A program made the position numbers and the translations under genes. From an uncultured Dehalococcoidia bacterium (GTDB taxonomy: Bacteria > Chloroflexota > Dehalococcoidia > Lucifugimonadales > Australimonadaceae): a stretch of 38,608 bases of DNA. This document shows, piece after piece, positions 351 through 23,922 of this stretch (positions are counted from its first letter, which is position 1; every line of letters starts with the position of its first letter). Under the pieces are notes generated by a model. It did not search any database and was not told where the DNA came from. It saw nothing but the letters and a program-made list of their open reading frames with translations. The stretch is from assembly GCA_964596665.1 (NCBI GenBank), contig CAZQVD010000001.1, positions 1-38,608 of the forward strand, in the 5' to 3' direction.

Positions 351-776
351 CTAGCCCTCGACGTCGACGCCCATGCTGCGCGCCGTGCCCTCAATGATTT
401 TCATGGCCGCTTCCACTGAGGCGGCGTTCAGGTCCTTCTGCTTCGTCTCGGCAATCTCGCGCAGCGCCGCGCGCTCGATGGTGCCGACCTTCTCGTGGTA
501 GGCGCGGCCACTGCCCTTCTCGACGCCGATCGCCTTGCGAATCAACTCGGGGGCCGGGGGTGTCTTGGTCACGAAGGTGAAGGAGGTGTCTTCGAAGACC
601 GTGATCTCAGCTGGGATGATCGTTCCCGCTTGATTCGCAGTCCGCGCGTTGTATTCCTTCACGAACTGCATGATGTTGACGCCATGCTGACCGAGGGCGG
701 GACCCACTGGCGGGGCGGGAGTGGCCGACCCTGCGGGAAGCTGTAATCTGAGTATCGCTCGGACTCTCTTCGCCAA
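351..776 (-). CDS. rplK: 50S ribosomal protein L11 (uL11)
   Basis: 141-aa track ORF with the L11 hallmark [36 protein letters not shown] start at 774-776, preceded by GGTAGGAGAG. Confidence 0.97.
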
Positions 777-793
777 CGAACTCTCCTACCGTG

Positions 794-1360
794 CTAGGCC
801 TTTTCGACCTGCAGGAAATCCAACTCGACCGGCGTTTCGCGCCCGAAGAACGAGACCAGCACGCGAACCTTGCCCTTGTCCTGATCGACGGAATCCACCG
901 CGCCCATGAACTCGGCGAACGGCCCGCTGCTGATGCGTACGATTTGCCCGGCGGCCAGCCCCACGCGCACCCGGGGCGTCGGGGCGACCATGCGGTTCAT
1001 GATCTGCTCGACCTCGCGAGGCTCCAGCGGCACGGGCTTCGGGCGCCGCTCGCGCTCATCCTCGGCGGACACGAACCCGGTGACCCCGGGTGTGTTCCGT
1101 ACCACGTACCAGCTCTGGTCGTCCATGGTCATCTGGACCATGATGTAGCCGGGGAAGATCTTGCGCTGGACAGACTTGCGCTTGCCTTCCTTAATCTCGA
1201 TCTCTTCTTCGGTGGGAACCACGACATGGTAGATCTTGTCCTTCACGTCCATGGACTCGATCCGCATCTCAAGGTTCTTCTTGACACGCTCTTCCTGGCC
1301 GGAATAGGTGTGGACGATGAACCAGAAGCCTCGCTCGTCTGTGGTGATCTGCTCGGTCAT
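794..1360 (-). CDS. nusG: Transcription termination/antitermination factor NusG
   Basis: 188 aa. NGN domain (WFIVHTYSGQEERVKKNL) plus C-terminal KOW (VRISSGPFAEFMGAVDSVD). Sits in the conserved secE-nusG-rplK order. Confidence 0.96.
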   Translation of the reverse strand: MTEQITTDERGFWFIVHTYSGQEERVKKNLEMRIESMDVKDKIYHVVVPTEEEIEIKEGKRKSVQRKIFPGYIMVQMTMDDQSWYVVRNTPGVTGFVSAEDERERRPKPVPLEPREVEQIMNRMVAPTPRVRVGLAAGQIVRISSGPFAEFMGAVDSVDQDKGKVRVLVSFFGRETPVELDFLQVEKA

Positions 1361-1430: not shown

Positions 1431-1673
1431 CTAGAGGAACAATCCTTCGACGATCTGCTGGAACGCGAAGTCCCAAAGACCCAGGAACACGCCCATCACC
1501 GCGGCAACGATGATGACGAGCCCCGCCAGCCTGGCCGCGTCCTGGCGGTCGGGCCAGGTGACTCTGGTGAGCTCGCTGTAAATCTCGCCGAAGAACTGCA
1601 GCCGGCCCCGCCGCCGCGTCTGGCCGTCTTCCATCATCGAGCGAAGCTGGTTGCCTCCTCGAGCGGCCGCCAT
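1431..1673 (-). CDS. secE: Preprotein translocase subunit SecE
   Basis: 80 aa. Motif FFGEIYSELTRVTWP followed by a single TM helix (LAGLVIIVAAVMGVFLGLW). Canonical position upstream of nusG. Confidence 0.92.
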   Translation of the reverse strand: MAAARGGNQLRSMMEDGQTRRRGRLQFFGEIYSELTRVTWPDRQDAARLAGLVIIVAAVMGVFLGLWDFAFQQIVEGLFL

Positions 1674-1855: not shown

Positions 1856-3052
1856 CTACTCAACGCCGGTGATGACCCCGGCTCCCACGGTCCGGCCACC
1901 CTCGCGTATGGCGAAGTGGAGGCCTACTTCCATGGCCATGGGATTGATGAGCTTTATGTGCATCTTGATGTTGTCGCCCGGCATGACCATCTCGACGCCC
2001 TCGGGCAGCGCAATCTCGCCAGTGACATCGCTGGTTCGGATGAAGAATTGCGGCTTGTAGCCCGTGAAGAACGGTGTATGACGGCCTCCCTCATCCTTAC
2101 TGAGCACGTATACCTCGGCGTCCGCTTCCAGCAGCGGCTTGATCGACGTTGGCTTGGCCAGCACCTGGCCGCGCTCCACATCGTCGCGCTCGACGCCGCG
2201 TAGCAGTGTGCCGACGGCATCGCCCGGCTCGGCTTCATCGAGCAGCTTGTGGAACATCTCCACGCCGGTGACCACCGTCTTCCGAGTTTCCTTGATACCG
2301 ACGATTTCGATGTCGTCGCCGGGCTTGACGACGCCCCGTTCCACGCGGCCGGTCACGACGGTGCCGCGGCCCTTGATGGAGAAGACGTCCTCCACCGGCA
2401 TCAGGAAAGGCAGGTCGCGCGGGCGATCGGGCACCGGAATGAAGTCGTCGAGAGCGGTCATGAGGTCGAGGATGGCCTTGTTCTCGGGCGCGTCGGCGTC
2501 GCCCTCGGACTCAAGCGCCTGCAGCGCACTCACCCGGATAATCGGGGTGTCGTCGCCGGGGAAGTCGTATTTGGTGAGAAGCTCGCGAATCTCCATCTCG
2601 ACCAGCTCGAGCAGCTCCTCGTCGTCCATCATGTCGACCTTGTTGAGGGCGACGATCATCTTGGGAACTTCCACCTGGCGGGCGAGCAGGATGTGCTCAC
2701 GCGTCTGCGGCATGGGGCCGTCGGGCGCGCTCACTACGAGGATGGCGCCGTCCATTTGGGCGGCTCCCGTAATCATGTTCTTGATGTAGTCGGCGTGACC
2801 CGGACAGTCCACGTGGGCATAGTGCCGATTCGCGGTCTCGTATTCGACGTGGGCGATGTTGATCGTCACGCCCCGGGCTTTCTCCTCCGGTGCGCTGTCG
2901 ATGCTGTCAAAGGCCCGGAAAGAGCCTCCGGCCCCCGCCTTGGAGAGCACCTTGGTGATCGCCGCGGTCAGGGTGGTCTTCCCGTGGTCCACGTGACCGA
3001 TGGTACCCACGTTGAGATGCGGCTTGGATCGCTCGAACTTCTGCTTGGCCAT
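1856..3052 (-). CDS. tuf: Elongation factor Tu
   Basis: 398 aa with G-motifs [13 protein letters not shown] and NKVD. Full-length EF-Tu-like sequence. Confidence 0.99.
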
Positions 3053-3709: not shown

Positions 3710-3795
3710 GTATGATTTAGTGCAATGTAACAACCGTCTTTTCGCGGTAGGGACCACGTCGCTGGACCTGCTGCGCCGAATCGGATAGGTGGAAA

Positions 3796-4050
3796 ATGCG
3801 ACCAGGCGTTATCTTCGTTGGGCTTTTCGCGCTGCTAATCGCGGTGTACGCATTTCTGGCAAGCACGCTCGGCAGCGTCCTGACGTTCCTTCTGCAAGCC
3901 GCGATCGTCCTCGTGCTGCTGGCCGCCGCGGTATGGTTCCGCAGGCTCCGCACCGCCCAGGTTCGGCATGCGGAGGAGCGCGAGCCCGAGGCGGCACTCA
4001 CCGCCCAAGCGGATACCGAAACCGCCGACCGGATGCAGAAGACCAGCTAG
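3796..4050 (+). CDS. Small membrane protein, two predicted TM helices, unknown function
   Basis: 84 aa. AGGTGGA precedes the ATG. Two hydrophobic segments (VIFVGLFALLIAVYAFLA and VLTFLLQAAIVLVLLAAAVWF) are followed by a charged tail. I recognise no family. Confidence 0.55.
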   Translation: MRPGVIFVGLFALLIAVYAFLASTLGSVLTFLLQAAIVLVLLAAAVWFRRLRTAQVRHAEEREPEAALTAQADTETADRMQKTS

Positions 4051-5528
4051 AAGTCGACCTCCAGCGACGCGACGTCTCCCGTGTCGAGATCCACGGTGCG
4101 GATTACGTGATTGTTCGTGTCCGCGACATAGAGCACGCGCTCCGACACGCTGAGGCCCCCCGGCTCGAAGAAACAAGCCTCGCGCGTCGTCCCGTCCACC
4201 AGGCCCGCTTCCCCCGAACCCGCGACCGTCACGACCCGCCCGGTTTCAATCCCAATGGACCTTATCTTGTGGTTATAGGTGTCCGCGACGTAGATGGTTC
4301 CACCATCTACGTCGACGCCCAGCGGGTGTTGGAGGCGTGCGGTCGGTCCGTCGCCGTCGGCATCGCCAAAGTCGAAGAGCCCCGAGCCCACCAGCGTCCT
4401 CACCTCGTGCATCGTGGTTGTATCCGCGAAGCGGACCGAGCTCGTCTCGCTGTCGGCGAAGTAGAGCACGCCCTCCTCGTCGGCGGCGATGCCGCTCGGT
4501 TGCGCGAGTGCCGCCTCCTCGGGTGGGCCGTCCACCATGCTCTCGGCTCCCGTCCCCACGGTTGCCTGCACCACGTTCGTGTCGAGGTTGAGTGTCCATA
4601 TCTGGTGGCTGCCGGCCATGGCGATGTGCAGGTCTCGCCGCACAAGGCTCAGGTCCCAAGGAGAGCGCAGGTCCACCTCCAGCGCCGCACCGCCCTCCAC
4701 GTACCCGATGCCCTGCTGACCTGTCCCGGCGATCGTCTCGACGGTTGCGGCTTCCAGATCCACAACACGGATCGCGTGATTCGCCGTGTCAGCAACGTAG
4801 AGGGTTTCCCCGAAGCGGGCCATGCCCTGAGGGTGGCTGAACTGCGCCCCCTCCAGCACGCCGTCGGAGAGCCCCTCTTCACCACTCCCAATCACTGTCT
4901 GCACGATGCCGTCCAGGTCGGCAACGATGATGCGGTGGTGGCCGGAGTCGGCGATGAACAGGCGCTCGTTCTCAGGGTCAGCGAGTACTTTGCCAGGGTA
5001 GCTCAGGAGGCTGGCGGGCGGTTGCTCCAGGACCAGCTTTGGTGGCGATGGGCGGAGGGTGCCGGCGGCCTTGAACTCGCCGATCATCTTGTCGATCAGC
5101 TCAGTGCCCTGATCGTAGGTCATCTCGCCCTCGATGCGGCCTATCACTTTGCCGGTGGGATCGACGAACATGAGCGTAGGCCACGCCCGCACGGCGTACG
5201 AGCGCCAGATGGCCATGGTCGCGTCGTTCACGACGGGGTGGCGGATGCCATAGCGCATGACGGCATGCCGGATGTTCTCGGTGGCCCGCTCCTGGTCGTA
5301 CTTGGCAGAGTGCACGCCCACCACCGCGAGGTCGTCCGGGTACCGGCGCTCCAGCTGGCGCAACGTGGGAATCACGTGCATGCAGTTGATGCAGCAGTAC
5401 GCCCAAAAGTCGAGCAGCAGCAGCTTGCCCTTGAAATCGGCGAGGCTGAGCGGCCCTGACGCGTTGACCCAATCGGCTCCAGCCGGGAATTCTGGAGCAT
5501 TCACCTTCCCGGGGTACCTTTCGGTCAC
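4047..5528 (-). CDS. Thioredoxin-fold (CxxC) domain fused to NHL-repeat beta-propeller (NHLRC2-like)
   Basis: 493 aa. The N-terminal redoxin domain carries LLLDFWAYCCINC (CINC redox motif). The C-terminal part has repeated YVADTxNHxIR NHL-type blades. GTG start preceded by GAGGTGG. Confidence 0.85.
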   Translation of the reverse strand: MTERYPGKVNAPEFPAGADWVNASGPLSLADFKGKLLLLDFWAYCCINCMHVIPTLRQLERRYPDDLAVVGVHSAKYDQERATENIRHAVMRYGIRHPVVNDATMAIWRSYAVRAWPTLMFVDPTGKVIGRIEGEMTYDQGTELIDKMIGEFKAAGTLRPSPPKLVLEQPPASLLSYPGKVLADPENERLFIADSGHHRIIVADLDGIVQTVIGSGEEGLSDGVLEGAQFSHPQGMARFGETLYVADTANHAIRVVDLEAATVETIAGTGQQGIGYVEGGAALEVDLRSPWDLSLVRRDLHIAMAGSHQIWTLNLDTNVVQATVGTGAESMVDGPPEEAALAQPSGIAADEEGVLYFADSETSSVRFADTTTMHEVRTLVGSGLFDFGDADGDGPTARLQHPLGVDVDGGTIYVADTYNHKIRSIGIETGRVVTVAGSGEAGLVDGTTREACFFEPGGLSVSERVLYVADTNNHVIRTVDLDTGDVASLEVDF

Positions 5529-13977: not shown

Positions 13978-14805
13978 TCAACGCCACCACCTCCCCGAGC
14001 GCTTCTCCCCAGCGCCCGCGGTCAGCAACGCATACTGCTCGTCGGTAAGACTCCAGCCCGAGGCACCGCAGTTCTCGTCGATGCGCTCGGCGTGGTTGGT
14101 CGCCGGTATCGTGACCGCCACGGGGGTATGCAGCACCCAGCGTAAGAGTACCTGCGCGGCAGTCTTACCGGTCTCCGAGCACACGCGGCCAATCGCCTCG
14201 GCCAGCCCCGAGCGACGCCGCGTCTCGCGCTCGAAGGCGCCTTGCTCCAGCGAGCTGTAGGCGATGATGGTGATGCCCCGCTCTGTGCAGTAGGGCAGCA
14301 GCTCGTCCGCGAACCCGTGGTCAAACAGGCTGTACTTGATCTGGTTGGAGACCACCCTGCCCTGCCCCAGCGCCGCGTCTGCGTCGCGCAGCTCAGCCAC
14401 CGAGAAGTTGCTGACGCCCACGTAGCGCACCTTGCCCGCCGACACGAGCGCGTCCATGGCTCCCATGGTTTCGGCGATGGGGATGCGCGAGTTGGGCGAG
14501 TGGAGCTGGTACAGGTCGATGGTGTCGACGCCCAGGCGCATCAGGCTCTGATCCGCGGCGTGCAGCACATCCTTGTGGTGGAAGTGCGGAGCCGACACCT
14601 TGGTCGCGATGAAGTAGGCCTCCCTGTTGCCCCGTATCGCACGGCCAACCTGCTCCTCGGTTTCGTACATCTCAGCAGTGTCGATGAGCGACGCGCCGAG
14701 CTCCATCGCGCGATGCACGATGTTGGCATCGCCCTTGTATTTCCAGGTGCCGAGGCCAACCTCCGGGATCTGCACGCCAGTCGCACCGAGCGGCTTCGTG
14801 TTCAT
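13978..14805 (-). CDS. Aldo/keto reductase
   Basis: 275 aa. AKR features GLGTWKY, IDTAEMY and HSPN. Confidence 0.88.
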   Translation of the reverse strand: MNTKPLGATGVQIPEVGLGTWKYKGDANIVHRAMELGASLIDTAEMYETEEQVGRAIRGNREAYFIATKVSAPHFHHKDVLHAADQSLMRLGVDTIDLYQLHSPNSRIPIAETMGAMDALVSAGKVRYVGVSNFSVAELRDADAALGQGRVVSNQIKYSLFDHGFADELLPYCTERGITIIAYSSLEQGAFERETRRRSGLAEAIGRVCSETGKTAAQVLLRWVLHTPVAVTIPATNHAERIDENCGASGWSLTDEQYALLTAGAGEKRSGRWWR

Positions 14806-18963: not shown

Positions 18964-19073
18964 GGCGGTTCGAGGTGGGCCGCCCGGACACGTCTTGTGG
19001 ACCGGGGGCCGGTGCAGCGCGGAGTAGGCGAACCGCCGCGCGCACGCCGGGTTGTTGGAACAAGGGGGTTGCC

Positions 19074-20303
19074 ATGTCTTACGTTTCCTCGATGCGATGC
19101 AAGGAATGCTCACGGGAATATCCGGTGGGCGCGTTCAATGTGTGCGATTTTTGCTTCGGTCCATTGGAGGTCGTCTACGACTACAATGCCATCGCGGAGG
19201 TCACCTCGCGAGAGCGCATCATGAGCGGCCCGCACTCGCTGTGGCGCTACGCGGACTTCCTTCCGGCCGACTACAACCCGGATGTGGACATCAACGCGGG
19301 CTTCACGCCGCTGATCCGATCCAAGGGTCTCGCGGAGCATCTGGGGTTGAACGAGCTCTGGATCAAGAACGACAGTGTGAATCCGTCCTACTCATTCAAG
19401 GACCGCGTCGTCGCGGTCGCGGCGGCCAAGGCGCTCGAGCTGGGTTTCGACACGATCGCATGCGCGTCGACGGGGAATCTGGCGTGTGCGGTCGCGGCCC
19501 ACGCCGCGCGGGGCGGGCTGAAGGCGTACGTGTTCATCCCGTCGGACCTAGAAGCGGGTAAGGTGCTGGGAGCTGCGATCTACGGCCCGACGATGATCGC
19601 GATTGACGGCACCTACGACGACGTGAATCGGCTCTGCAGCGAGCTCGCGGAGGAACACCCGTGGGCGTTCGTGAACATCAACGTCCGCCCCTTCTACGCC
19701 GACGGCAGCAAGACACTCGGCTTCGAGGTGGCGGAGCAACTTGGCTGGCGCGCCCCGATGCATGCAGTGGTGCCGTCGGCATCGGGTGCCATGTTCACGA
19801 AGATCTACCAAGGGCTGAAGGAGTTCGAGAGGACCGGGTTGATCGACTCCGTGCAAACCAAGATGCACAGTACGCAGCCGCGTGGCTGCTGCCCTATCGC
19901 GACGGCTTACGAAGAGGGTCGATTCGTGATCCGGCCGATCAAGGCGAGCAGCCTGGCGACGTCGCTTGCAATCGGGAATCCGGCAGACGGCTATTATGCC
20001 CTGAAGACCATCGAGGCCTCGGGCGGCTCCGCCGTCATCGCCGAGGAGCATGAGGTGGCGCAGGGCGTGAAGCTGCTGGCTGAGACGGAGGGCATCTTCA
20101 CCGAGGGCGCGGGCGGCGTGGCGGTCATGGGCCTGAAGCACCTCGTGGAGCTGGGCCGCATCCAACCCGACGAATCGACCGTGGTCTACATTACCGGCAA
20201 CGGGCTGAAGACCACCGAACTGGTGGCAGATGTGGTGCACCCTCTGCACATCGAGCCCACGGTGGAAGCGTTCGAGCAGGCGATAGCAGCGAGCACCGGC
20301 TGA
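19074..20303 (+). CDS. thrC: Threonine synthase-family PLP enzyme with N-terminal Zn-ribbon
   Basis: The track ORF starts at 18975. I prefer ATG 19074 (AAGGGGG upstream), giving MSYVSSMRCKECSREYPVGAFNVCDFC. That N-terminus has a CxxC...CxxC ribbon. The PLP-lysine motif is NPSYSFKDR. It may not be a true ThrC (see findings). Confidence 0.85.
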   Translation: MSYVSSMRCKECSREYPVGAFNVCDFCFGPLEVVYDYNAIAEVTSRERIMSGPHSLWRYADFLPADYNPDVDINAGFTPLIRSKGLAEHLGLNELWIKNDSVNPSYSFKDRVVAVAAAKALELGFDTIACASTGNLACAVAAHAARGGLKAYVFIPSDLEAGKVLGAAIYGPTMIAIDGTYDDVNRLCSELAEEHPWAFVNINVRPFYADGSKTLGFEVAEQLGWRAPMHAVVPSASGAMFTKIYQGLKEFERTGLIDSVQTKMHSTQPRGCCPIATAYEEGRFVIRPIKASSLATSLAIGNPADGYYALKTIEASGGSAVIAEEHEVAQGVKLLAETEGIFTEGAGGVAVMGLKHLVELGRIQPDESTVVYITGNGLKTTELVADVVHPLHIEPTVEAFEQAIAASTG

Positions 20304-20324
20304 ACGGAAGACGGAGGTCGAGCG

Positions 20325-20561
20325 ATGCAGCGCGTTCGGTTCACGTTCTTGGACCGGCTCATCAAAGAACCGGTGATCTACCAAATGGGGCACGACTTCG
20401 GCGTGGTGACGAATATCCGGCGAGCCGACATCCAAGAGGGCATCGGTTGGGTGCTGCTCGAGCTGGAGGGTGAGGACGACGAGATCGAGCGCGCGCTCAA
20501 GTGGGTTCGCTCGTTAGGAGTCCGCGTTGACCCGGCGGTCAGCGACGTAGTAGAAGGCTAG
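20325..20561 (+). CDS. Stand-alone NIL-domain protein
   Basis: 78 aa. FLDRLIKEPVIYQMGHDFGVVTNIRRADIQEGIGWVLLELEG resembles the NIL domain found at the C-terminus of MetN-type ABC ATPases. GGAGG upstream of the start. Confidence 0.7.
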   Translation: MQRVRFTFLDRLIKEPVIYQMGHDFGVVTNIRRADIQEGIGWVLLELEGEDDEIERALKWVRSLGVRVDPAVSDVVEG

Positions 20562-20594
20562 GTAAGCTAGTCCTGCCATATCAGGGAGCGAAAC

Positions 20595-20870
20595 ATGAGC
20601 GTCACGGTACGCATACCCGGTCCGCTGCGGCGGATCACCAACGGCGAGAACAAAGTGGAGGTCGAGGGAGAGAACCTCGGCGGACTGATTAGCGCCCTCG
20701 AGGACCAGTACCCCGGGATGAGGGAGCGCCTGCTGGACGAGGAGGGCAAGCTCCGCTACTTCGTCAACCTCTACCTGAACAACGAGGACGTGCGGTTCCT
20801 CGAGGGTCTCGAGACCGCGCTCAAGGCAGGCGACGAAGTCAGCATCGTTCCTGCGGTCGCTGGGGGCTAG
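20595..20870 (+). CDS. MoaD/ThiS-family sulfur-carrier protein, C-terminal GG
   Basis: 91 aa. The sequence suggests a beta-grasp-type fold and ends in ...[19 protein letters not shown] upstream of the start. Confidence 0.85.
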
Positions 20871-20881
20871 CCCCCACTCCC

Positions 20882-21589
20882 TTGCAACAGATTCCGGACG
20901 ACGACGAGCTCGAGGGACTCGAAGAGTTCCATGAGCGCCAATTGGATGAGTTCGAAGAGCTCAACGCGTCCACGGCCTCGGCCACATTCCTCGACCAGCG
21001 CTGGTGGAAGTGGGCGGGCCTTGCAATAGCCGGCCTGATCCTGCTCACGTTCATGCTGCCGCTGCTCTCGCCTTTCTTTGACCGCAGTCCCGCCCCCAGC
21101 GCAGCCGAGCCGGACATCGTCACGCTGCCCGACTTCGTGCTGCCGACCGCCTACGGAACGAACCTTCGCCTCTCCGACGAGCTGCGCTCGAACGACGTGG
21201 TCGTGCTCGTGTTCTACCGAGGTTTCTTCTGAGGGATCTGCCGCGATCAGCTCGTCGAGCTACAAGACGCCTACGCAAGCATCAGGGCCGAGGATGCCCA
21301 GCTCATCGCCATCAGCATCGATGACGTCGATGACGCCCGCCGGATGGCGGAGCACGCGAGGGCCAGCTTCCCGATCCTCGCCGACGAGGGCCACGCCGTC
21401 ACCAGCTCTTACGGCTTGTACGACCTACTCGGCGATGGAGTGTCGGTCCCGGCTGCATTGTTCCTGAACAGCGATAGCGAGCTGCTGGGAGCCTACGTGG
21501 GAGAATCGATCGGCGACCGCTTGCCGACAGACGCAATCATCGACTTGCTGCGCCGCGCCAACGGCACGGCGGCGGGCACCGACAGCTAG
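20882..21589 (+). CDS. Membrane-anchored AhpC/TSA-redoxin family protein with in-frame TGA (candidate selenocysteine, UxxC) at 21230-21232
   Basis: Track ORFs 20882..21232 and 21344..21589 share a frame. The intervening 111 nt are stop-free and encode conserved redoxin sequence. The motif reads VLVFYRGFF-TGA-GIC. The start codon is uncertain (TTG 20882). Confidence 0.65.
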
Positions 21590-23280: not shown

Positions 23281-23922
23281 TCATGGCCGCGGTGGCCGGG
23301 TCCGTACTGTGCCGTCCCACTCGTCCAGAGGCGCGCAGTGCCAGTACCAGTTGTCTCCCACCGGAGGTCGGTCCGGCAGGGCCAGGCGGCCGGTCGCCCA
23401 CCGCAACGCCTCCCAGGGCTGGCGTATGTCGGCCACCCACGGGAAGAGACGGGCCAGTATCCGCGCGCTCAGCTCGTCTGGAGGATGGAACGCGAGTCCG
23501 AGGCCACCGGCGATGTCGGAGGTATGGAGCAGCAGCTCGGTGCAGGCCATGGCGGAATAGCCCGAGACGTCGGCCATCCCGGCCGGATGGAACGTTCGCG
23601 CATCCGGCGGCACGCTCCGCAGGATGGCGGCGACGATGTGCGCCATGGTGCCCACGACCGATATCAGATCGTCAACGGATTTCTTGGCGTCGCCGGCACG
23701 CACCGACGGGGAACGGGTCTGCGCTCGGCTCGCAAGCTGGCCCGCGTAGAAAGCGAGCCCATCGGCCATGTGGTCCAACGTGCGGCGGCAGTCCCAGTCC
23801 AAGCCCTGGGCGGGTTCGGACCAATCGAACTCGGCGGCGCCGGCCAGCGCTGCGCGCGCGAGCGCTCCTGCCTCGGCGACGTCATCCGGTCCAAGCGGCC
23901 GGGACTCGATCTGACTCGCCAT
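23281..23922 (-). CDS. DinB-like / maleylpyruvate-isomerase N-terminal domain family protein
   Basis: 213 aa. The His-containing helical pattern (TLDHMADGLAFYA..., ELLLHTSD) resembles the DinB/MDMPI_N superfamily. The assignment rests on family resemblance only. Confidence 0.6.
   Translation of the reverse strand: MASQIESRPLGPDDVAEAGALARAALAGAAEFDWSEPAQGLDWDCRRTLDHMADGLAFYAGQLASRAQTRSPSVRAGDAKKSVDDLISVVGTMAHIVAAILRSVPPDARTFHPAGMADVSGYSAMACTELLLHTSDIAGGLGLAFHPPDELSARILARLFPWVADIRQPWEALRWATGRLALPDRPPVGDNWYWHCAPLDEWDGTVRTRPPRP

Follow-up and report, generated by a model that had tools for sequence, protein, structure and literature searches.

In the 38,608-nucleotide stretch of DNA analysed here (contig CAZQVD010000001.1, positions 1 to 38,608, from assembly GCA_964596665.1 of an uncultured Dehalococcoidia bacterium; hereafter the window), positions 20882-21589 of the forward strand form one frame of 235 codons whose sole internal stop is the TGA at 21230-21232. 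Translated through this stop, the frame specifies a redoxin preceded by a hydrophobic segment, with the TGA in the place of the first Cys of a CxxC redox motif. An earlier note, made from the sequence letters, had proposed a thioredoxin-fold selenoprotein of the UxxC type, i.e., one in which UGA is read as selenocysteine (Sec or U). That proposal is supported by the Cys that homologues carry in the TGA column, by the retention of the TGA among orthologues, by purifying selection behind it and by a conserved hairpin resembling a selenocysteine insertion sequence (SECIS).

Reading frame, domains and membrane anchor

Translation agrees with the earlier description of a single frame broken by one TGA and reading VLVFYRGFF-TGA-GIC across the stop. 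The 111 nt between the TGA and the next ATG (21233-21343) are stop-free and encode GICRDQLVELQDAYASIRAEDAQLIAISIDDVDDARR, and the suggestion that they specify the redoxin core is borne out by Pfam: with Cys substituted for the stop, the read-through protein matches AhpC-TSA (2.2e-23; 82.9 bits where the cut-off is 26) and Redoxin (5e-17) over residues 82-198, and so across the TGA. An open reading frame (ORF) starting at 21344 does lack this core, as had been claimed: roughly one third of the fold would be missing from its product, the active site included. Because the Pfam match crosses the TGA and the same TGA recurs in independent orthologues, the frame is more than a product of chance. The features of the gene and of its upstream neighbours are collected in Table 1.

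Table 1. Features of the redoxin gene and of the genes upstream of it, in window coordinates
Feature	Position	Strand	Description and evidence
Read-through redoxin coding sequence	20882..21589	+	235 codons including the proposed Sec117, TTG start, TAG stop; start aligns with the Met of homologues
In-frame TGA, proposed Sec117	21230..21232	+	First (nucleophilic, as proposed) residue of the U-G-I-C redox motif
TGC, Cys120	21239..21241	+	Second residue of the UxxC motif; invariant in the alignment; aligns with the BCP-type peroxidatic Cys (2cx3, 2ywn)
SECIS-like stem-loop	21243..21270	+	Minimum free energy fold, subgroup conservation, covariation, bacterial SECIS consensus
Acidic N-terminal tail	20882..21013	+	44 residues, net charge -10; alignment, charge counts
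Predicted single transmembrane helix (signal-anchor)	21014..21070	+	Residues 45-63; hydropathy, AlphaFold model of P0005
AhpC/TSA-redoxin (thioredoxin-fold) domain	21125..21475	+	Residues 82-198; Pfam, PDB sequence matches, Foldseek
ThrC-like pyridoxal phosphate enzyme (PALP)	18975..20303	+	Pfam
NIL-domain protein	20325..20561	+	Pfam
ThiS-family sulfur carrier	20595..20870	+	Pfam; ends 11 nt before the redoxin start

Among solved structures, the domain matches in sequence those of BCP/PrxQ, AhpE, ResA and DsbE, the closest being 2cx3 (4.6e-9). In the AlphaFold model of a syntenic Cys-containing orthologue (P0005), the domain is modelled with a per-residue confidence (pLDDT) above 90 over residues 81-200, the CxxC motif sits at the N-terminal end of a helix (118-136), and a long helix corresponding to the membrane segment spans residues 40-69; Foldseek finds TM-scores of about 0.8 alike to ResA and to BCP/AhpE/LsfA (including Bcp1). 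When the protein is aligned with BCP/PrxQ, Cys120 falls on the peroxidatic Cys, residue 117 on the Thr/Ser of the PxxxT/SxxC motif and Arg113 in the Pro column, and the protein is therefore a peroxiredoxin-like (Prx-like) protein of the CxxC type and no canonical peroxiredoxin.

Hydropathy and charge likewise confirm the acidic N-terminus and the one transmembrane (TM) helix that had been read from the sequence as a membrane anchor. Kyte-Doolittle values average 2.2 over residues 45-63, which make up the hydrophobic segment (AGLAIAGLILLTFMLPLLS), and the mean over 19 residues lies between 2.2 and 2.8 in all nine of nine full-length orthologues. Throughout the orthologues, two or three Lys/Arg residues flank it on the N-terminal side and none or one on the C-terminal side, a distribution that favours the ResA/TlpA arrangement, N-in and with an external domain; the very acidic tail is a reservation on this predicted topology. 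Just N-terminal of the membrane segment the tail carries the motif ELDEFEELNxSTAxxTFLDQRWW, which in its wider form, E-L-D-E-F-E-E-L-N-x-S-T-A-x-x-T-F-L-D-Q-R-W-[WF]-[KR]-W (alignment columns 40-65), is conserved in all full-length orthologues. Such a conserved motif beside a TM helix hints at a possible binding partner.

Conservation of the TGA and of the hairpin behind it

The relatives found in the protein collection are of two kinds. On the one hand, the full-length Cys forms P0001-P0008 carry motifs of the type FYRG[FY][ADF]-C-xx-C, P0008 reading FYRGFFCGIC; the alignment of homologues suggested earlier as a check places an invariant Cys in the TGA column in eight of these eight sequences, and the column of Cys120 is invariant too. 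On the other hand, P0010-P0013 are domain-less proteins of 130-142 aa with about 40% identity, all of which end precisely at ...VVLVFYRGFF. As to P0008, it is encoded at 452-898 (+) of a 1 kb contig (L161), its Cys codon is TGT, and it has neither the N-terminal tail nor the TM helix.

At the DNA level, the syntenic loci L001 and L002, from which these short proteins derive and whose redoxins are about 51% identical to that of the window, have the same TGA, followed by an open frame that begins with GICRSQLVELERAYPEIRAEGAELLAISVD... and gives a read-through product of 254 codons. A third syntenic locus, L003, has the same TGA with a frameshift behind it, and its PALP gene is split as well; these breaks (219-1446 in PALP and 2094-2893 in the redoxin, on a contig of long-read style) are most likely indel errors of the assembly and not decay. 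The TGA is also found in independent samples, in L075 (92-98% amino-acid identity) and in a fragment, L167, that matches 192 nt across the TGA at 98% nucleotide identity. The latter lies in a chimera (P0009, L167 4001-4511) in which a sulfatase N-terminus of lower GC content is joined to the match of window positions 21126-21317, on a contig with twofold coverage. This chimera is most likely a metagenome misassembly, and the TGA is nonetheless independently shown by it.

Beyond these close relatives, a search of metagenomes with the pattern V-F-[YH]-R-G-[FY]-x-TGA-x-x-C-R retrieved at least 120 loci, against about two expected by chance on a rough estimate, and in all but one of the matches listed the frame runs 100-260 codons past the TGA through the redoxin core ...A[IV]S.D. 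By the residues flanking U, the loci fall into subfamilies such as FW-U-PPCRxELRGY, FW-U-P[FY]CR and FF-U-GIC, the last being that of the window. The nearest named genomes with orthologues are Chloroflexota and Dehalococcoidia metagenome-assembled genomes (MAGs), both with Cys forms (42-46% identity), and these orthologues are the basis for assigning the window to that lineage; the profile search of genome contigs used a Cys-containing pattern and could thus return Cys forms only.

Over the 118 codons 3′ of the TGA, the ratio of non-synonymous to synonymous substitution rates (dN/dS; Nei-Gojobori) lies between 0.25 and 0.33 when the window is compared with L075, L001, L095, L129, L094 and L043. 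The stretch behind the TGA is therefore translated in frame and constrained, which excludes a pseudogene. The constraint extends over the 37 codons that precede the ATG at 21344, and an independent product beginning at that ATG is thereby excluded too.

A short hairpin follows the TGA. Its upper stem pairs AGCUC (21249-53) with GAGCU (21257-61) around a GUC loop (21254-56) whose positions, counted from the U of UGA, are +25 to +27, and the lower pairs between GCG (21243-45) and CGC (21268-70) are present in the minimum free energy (MFE) fold, 21230-21285 folding at -10.6 kcal/mol. The G25-U26 of the loop lie close to the position of G23-U24 in E. coli fdhF. All members of the FF-U-GIC subgroup have CAGCUC-NNN-GAGCUG with the loop fixed at +25 to +27. 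The consensus for bacterial SECIS (bSECIS) elements comprises a loop of 3-9 nt whose first two positions contain G (usually G followed by G or U), an upper stem of 4-16 bp, a spacing of 16-37 nt and an MFE of at most -7.5 kcal/mol (PMC13188914), and the window element, with its GUC loop, 5 bp, 21 nt of spacing and -10.6 kcal/mol for the extended fold, lies within these limits.

Covariation was assessed over a 7-bp helix at positions 18-24/28-34, in 34 different Sec forms with a peptide of the type [QE]-L-x-[EQ]-L. In this set 92.9% of cells are paired, compared with 85.5% in shuffles (none of 500 reaching the observed value) and 21-42% in slid registers. Double changes occur at four of the seven pairs, for example Gln CAG to CAA together with Leu CUG to UUG, which is doubly synonymous, or the C-to-G change of Gln to Glu together with Leu CUG to CUC; the doubly synonymous ones among these compensatory changes are not explicable by the protein. 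Among Cys-form orthologues that encode an identical QLxEL peptide, most disrupt the helix through synonymous codons, namely GAA (L004, L005, L163/4) and CAA (L162), and relative to synonymous-codon randomisation the mean z is -1.43 for Sec forms and -0.13 for Cys forms, of which there were only eight.

Other subfamilies have hairpins of their own at their own fixed distances, such as GCCNCG-AGUUG-CGN'GGC, in which N:N' is G:C, U:A, A:U or C:G. This 6-bp hairpin, with a 5-nt AGUUG loop from +20, belongs to the FW-U-PPCRxELRGY group (within L041-L160, e.g., L049, L057 and L081); its fourth pair covaries, tied to amino-acid changes (R/L/H/S), and it is a cleaner SECIS than that of the window. One 3.5-kb contig of this group (L089) bears two divergent FW-U-PPCR redoxin genes, each with the TGA followed by GCCGCG-AGUUG-CGCGGC (260-294 on the reverse strand and 1224-1258 on the forward strand).

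Decoding of the UGA and competing explanations

If the UGA at 21230-21232 is decoded as Sec, the active site would be U117-G-I-C120 at the N-terminal end of helix α1. By analogy with CxxC redoxins, Sec117 would act as the exposed nucleophile in the attack on a substrate, be it a disulfide, a sulfenate or a peroxide, Cys120 would resolve the intermediate via a selenenylsulfide, and an external thiol reductant would re-reduce the enzyme. Recoding would operate in cis, through the hairpin 3′ of the UGA with its G-U-C loop, which is embedded in the codons for Q-L-V-E-L and would be bound by SelB carrying Sec-tRNA(Sec).

As the earlier note had stated, TGA is an ordinary stop elsewhere in the window: those at 13957-59, 20301-03 and 26590-92 end the Pfam-supported genes for MBL-rhodanese, PALP and Rieske/LigXa proteins, respectively. 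A TGA also ends the aldo-keto reductase gene at 13978-14805 (-), whose product has 275 aa here and in L001 and L165. Several Pfam-supported genes of the window thus end in TGA at lengths matching those of their orthologues, and the genetic code is therefore standard. The TGA between PALP and NIL, which are in the same frame and seven codons apart, was considered as a further recoding site and rejected as an ordinary stop; the two genes overlap in different frames in L001 and lie about 450 nt apart in L165. Other selenoprotein genes, sought in the window as TGA-joined frames with high G+C content at third codon positions (GC3), yielded only antisense, low-complexity frames. The window holds a second redoxin on the reverse strand (4047-5528), a 493-aa protein with thioredoxin-like/AhpC-TSA and NHL-repeat regions and the motif FWAYCCINC, and it was dismissed as a further selenoprotein, its CCINC motif being normal and its frame free of TGA. 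The 556-aa ORF that overlaps it on the other strand (3789-5459, +) has no Pfam match and is probably no gene.

The points that weigh against a selenoprotein concern the decoding machinery and the hairpin. Neither selA, selB or selD nor a tRNA-Sec gene lies within the 38.6-kb window. The hairpin overlaps a conserved peptide, so that constraint on the protein accounts for part of its conservation; the set of Cys-form controls, with eight sequences, is small; and L161, which among the Cys forms is the nearest to the FF-U-GIC subgroup, keeps the full 7-bp hairpin (GCAGCUC-GUG-GAGUUGC), which may be the relic of a recent Sec-to-Cys conversion. In the window itself the stem has only 5 bp, -4.1 kcal/mol and p = 0.36 against synonymous-codon randomisation, being minimal and the weakest of the subgroup because the second Leu codon is CUA, as it is in L149. 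Folding 21225-21300, the check that the earlier note had recommended, lends the hairpin no single-sequence support, this segment and 21230-21285 folding no better than dinucleotide shuffles (z = +1.1 and +1.2), and an Rfam scan of the region found no family even at E ≤ 10. Of what that note had said about the hairpin, the location and the flanking GCG/CGC pairs hold, and "not convincing" is a fair verdict on the window alone; the covariation across the subfamily supports a SECIS.

As to the machinery, Chloroflexi include Sec decoders and have tRNA-Sec (PMC1794560 Table 2; PMC5389517); a tRNA-Sec of the 8/4 type has been reported for them. A pattern for the SelD active-site signature, a weak and uninformative probe, had no match across 840 kb of the loci analysed. 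ARAGORN reported a 94-nt "tRNA-Arg(tct)" at 23692-23785 (-), which was rejected as a tRNA-Sec on account of an anticodon other than UCA and its position inside a coding ORF; the segment has no Rfam tRNA or tRNA-Sec match even at E ≤ 10, and the call is almost certainly a false positive within a 213-aa MDMPI_N-like ORF (23281-23922, -). On two contigs from Acidobacteriota MAGs, ARAGORN also reported a 99-nt tRNA-SeC (tca), at 1525-1623 (-) of L006 and 2333-2431 (-) of L007, adjoining a distant Cys-form redoxin (CGQC, 28-30% identity). The identity of these tRNAs is uncertain because allo-tRNAs with UCA anticodons have been reported in Acidobacteria (PMC5389517).

Taking the evidence together, we put at about 0.85 the probability that 20882-21589 is a single genuine gene, encoding a thioredoxin-fold redox enzyme anchored in the membrane, in which the TGA specifies Sec in place of the first active-site Cys. 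A neighbouring explanation is that the UGA is read as Cys or another standard amino acid, by a tRNA-Cys(UCA) of the selC* type or by near-cognate decoding, which would yield an ordinary CxxC redoxin. In delta-proteobacteria such tRNAs exist and place Cys at UGA codons of the Sec type (PMC5389517), Cys is functional at the UGA position in orthologues, and the sel-gene survey is confined to the 38.6-kb window. We nevertheless hold this explanation improbable: SelB-dependent decoding requires just such a conserved hairpin, spaced like a SECIS and with G first in its loop, a general suppressor would be costly where TGA is the normal stop of several neighbouring genes, the window contains no suppressor tRNA, and the family is already recognised as one with Sec and Cys members (PMC2398784, PMC13188914).

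The remaining explanations deny that the TGA is recoded. A single TGY-to-TGA change would suffice to turn a Cys-form redoxin into a pseudogene, and the frameshift behind the TGA in L003 might be read in that way, but orthologues that have diverged at roughly half of their residues retain the very same TGA, as do at least 120 members of the family, and the low dN/dS downstream comes without further stops or frameshifts. The earlier note had named stops or frameshifts at varying positions as the mark of a pseudogene; what orthologues have is the same TGA, and the frameshift of L003, where PALP is also split, is likely indel noise. Decay by nonsense mutation is accordingly very doubtful. Equally little credit is due to a true stop with two polypeptides, i.e., a 116-residue anchored N-terminal fragment and a C-terminal one initiated at the ATG at 21344 or at an earlier TTG or GTG. 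Gene callers do split the orthologues in this manner (130-aa and 114-aa products in L001), but the called starts vary between orthologues (+28 nt in L001, +6 nt in L003), the Cys-form orthologues are single polypeptides, and the 37 codons from TGA to ATG, without which the second product is truncated as described above, are conserved as protein, including the invariant Cys120 and Arg121. A sequencing or assembly error at the TGA, or reassignment of TGA to Trp or Gly, is very improbable, given that assemblies made independently from different samples (L075, L167, L001 and L002) carry the same TGA and that TGA ends at least four Pfam-supported genes of the window at orthologue-matching lengths.

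Gene neighbourhood and relation to known systems

The gene lies in a housekeeping region, in which the window also encodes L11, NusG, SecE, EF-Tu, tRNAs, GatB, CysRS, IspDF, ClpC, DnaJ, AroKB and AroC as well as RuvX, AlaRS, OtsAB, MscS, PanE and others. The genes for PALP, NIL and ThiS (18975..20870, +) are probably co-transcribed with the redoxin. The order PALP-NIL-ThiS-redoxin, followed on the opposite strand by AroK-AroB and chorismate synthase, is found in the window, in L001-L003 and in L162-L165, and since Sec-form loci (L001-L003) and Cys-form loci (L162-L165) share this gene order, they are orthologues. Whether the order reflects a functional link, with the selenoprotein serving a pathway of the sulfur-carrier protein, is a speculative matter to which we attach little probability; the selenoprotein would in that case act through its acidic tail or through a domain facing the cytoplasm, for example in the reductive release of a ThiS thiocarboxylate or acyl-persulfide intermediate, and such a role, if true, would be physiologically new among UxxC selenoproteins.

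The main value of the locus is one of annotation, and knowledge of Sec decoding and of redoxin chemistry is left unchanged. Bacterial selenoproteins of this sort are routinely mis-annotated as two fragments, and public databases store this gene and its orthologues split into a domain-less piece of 116-142 residues ending in ...FYRGFF and a redoxin piece without the active site, so that a selenoprotein, and with it a dependence on selenium, goes unseen in a marine lineage resembling Chloroflexota. The gene also illustrates in compact form a minimal SECIS hairpin within conserved Q-L-x-E-L codons, with matched Cys-form orthologues as controls.

Several known systems resemble the window protein in part. 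Like ResA/CcmG/TlpA, it has one TM anchor at the N-terminus and behind it a CxxC-type domain of thioredoxin fold, with the structural similarity to ResA noted above; it differs in scoring 34 bits against the cut-off of 170 for ResA (NCBIfam NF002854), in having FYRGFF-U-GIC-R instead of W-C-x-x-C, and in the lack of cytochrome c maturation genes near the redoxin. BCP/PrxQ and AhpE contain the closest solved sequence (2cx3), equal ResA in fold similarity and share the peroxidatic Cys at the position of Cys120, whereas the window protein is without the Pro and the Thr/Ser of PxxxT/SxxC, in whose places stand Arg113 and the proposed Sec117; equivalog scores are far under their cut-offs (PrxQ 31/260, PRK09437 38/140 and PrxU 30/270 bits). 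No NCBIfam model comes near its cut-off, and the best match is the SelL-related family (NF040769; 3.8e-11), with which the protein shares a Prx-like fold and a motif of CxxC/UxxC type whose second Cys is equivalent to the Prx peroxidatic Cys; at 43 bits against a cut-off of 120 it stands outside this curated subfamily, and SelL proper is UxxU. The CxxC group of PRX_like2 (cd02970) is presumably a comparable relative alongside SelL.

The closest correspondence is with the UxxC "Prx-like" selenoproteins of PF00578, first predicted by Kryukov and Gladyshev in 2004, of which 22 sequences were counted in the Sargasso Sea and 225 ("Prx-like 1") in the data of the GOS (Global Ocean Sampling) survey (PMC1088965, PMC2398784, PMC13188914 Table 1). 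A 2026 review lists both a "Prx-like thiol:disulfide oxidoreductase, PF00578, UxxC/UxxU" and a "Redoxin family protein, PF08534, UxxC" (PMC13188914). In the description of the Prx-like family (PMC1088965), a thioredoxin-like UxxC stands where true peroxiredoxins have TxxU/TxxC, and the window motif, U117-G-I-C120, agrees with it. Prx-like 1 proteins and the window clade have in common the AhpC/TSA domain, the Sec/Cys pairs, a SECIS directly 3′ of the UGA and their frequency in marine metagenomes, the placement of the window protein in that group being by description (published reference WP_010940744.1). The window clade is set apart by its acidic tail, its one TM helix, the fixed PALP-NIL-ThiS neighbourhood and an apparent origin in Chloroflexota/Dehalococcoidia, as opposed to Deltaproteobacteria. 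With these particulars, the gene fits the long-known Prx-like thiol:disulfide oxidoreductase or Prx-like 1 selenoproteins of the UxxC type, which have been catalogued since 2004-2008.

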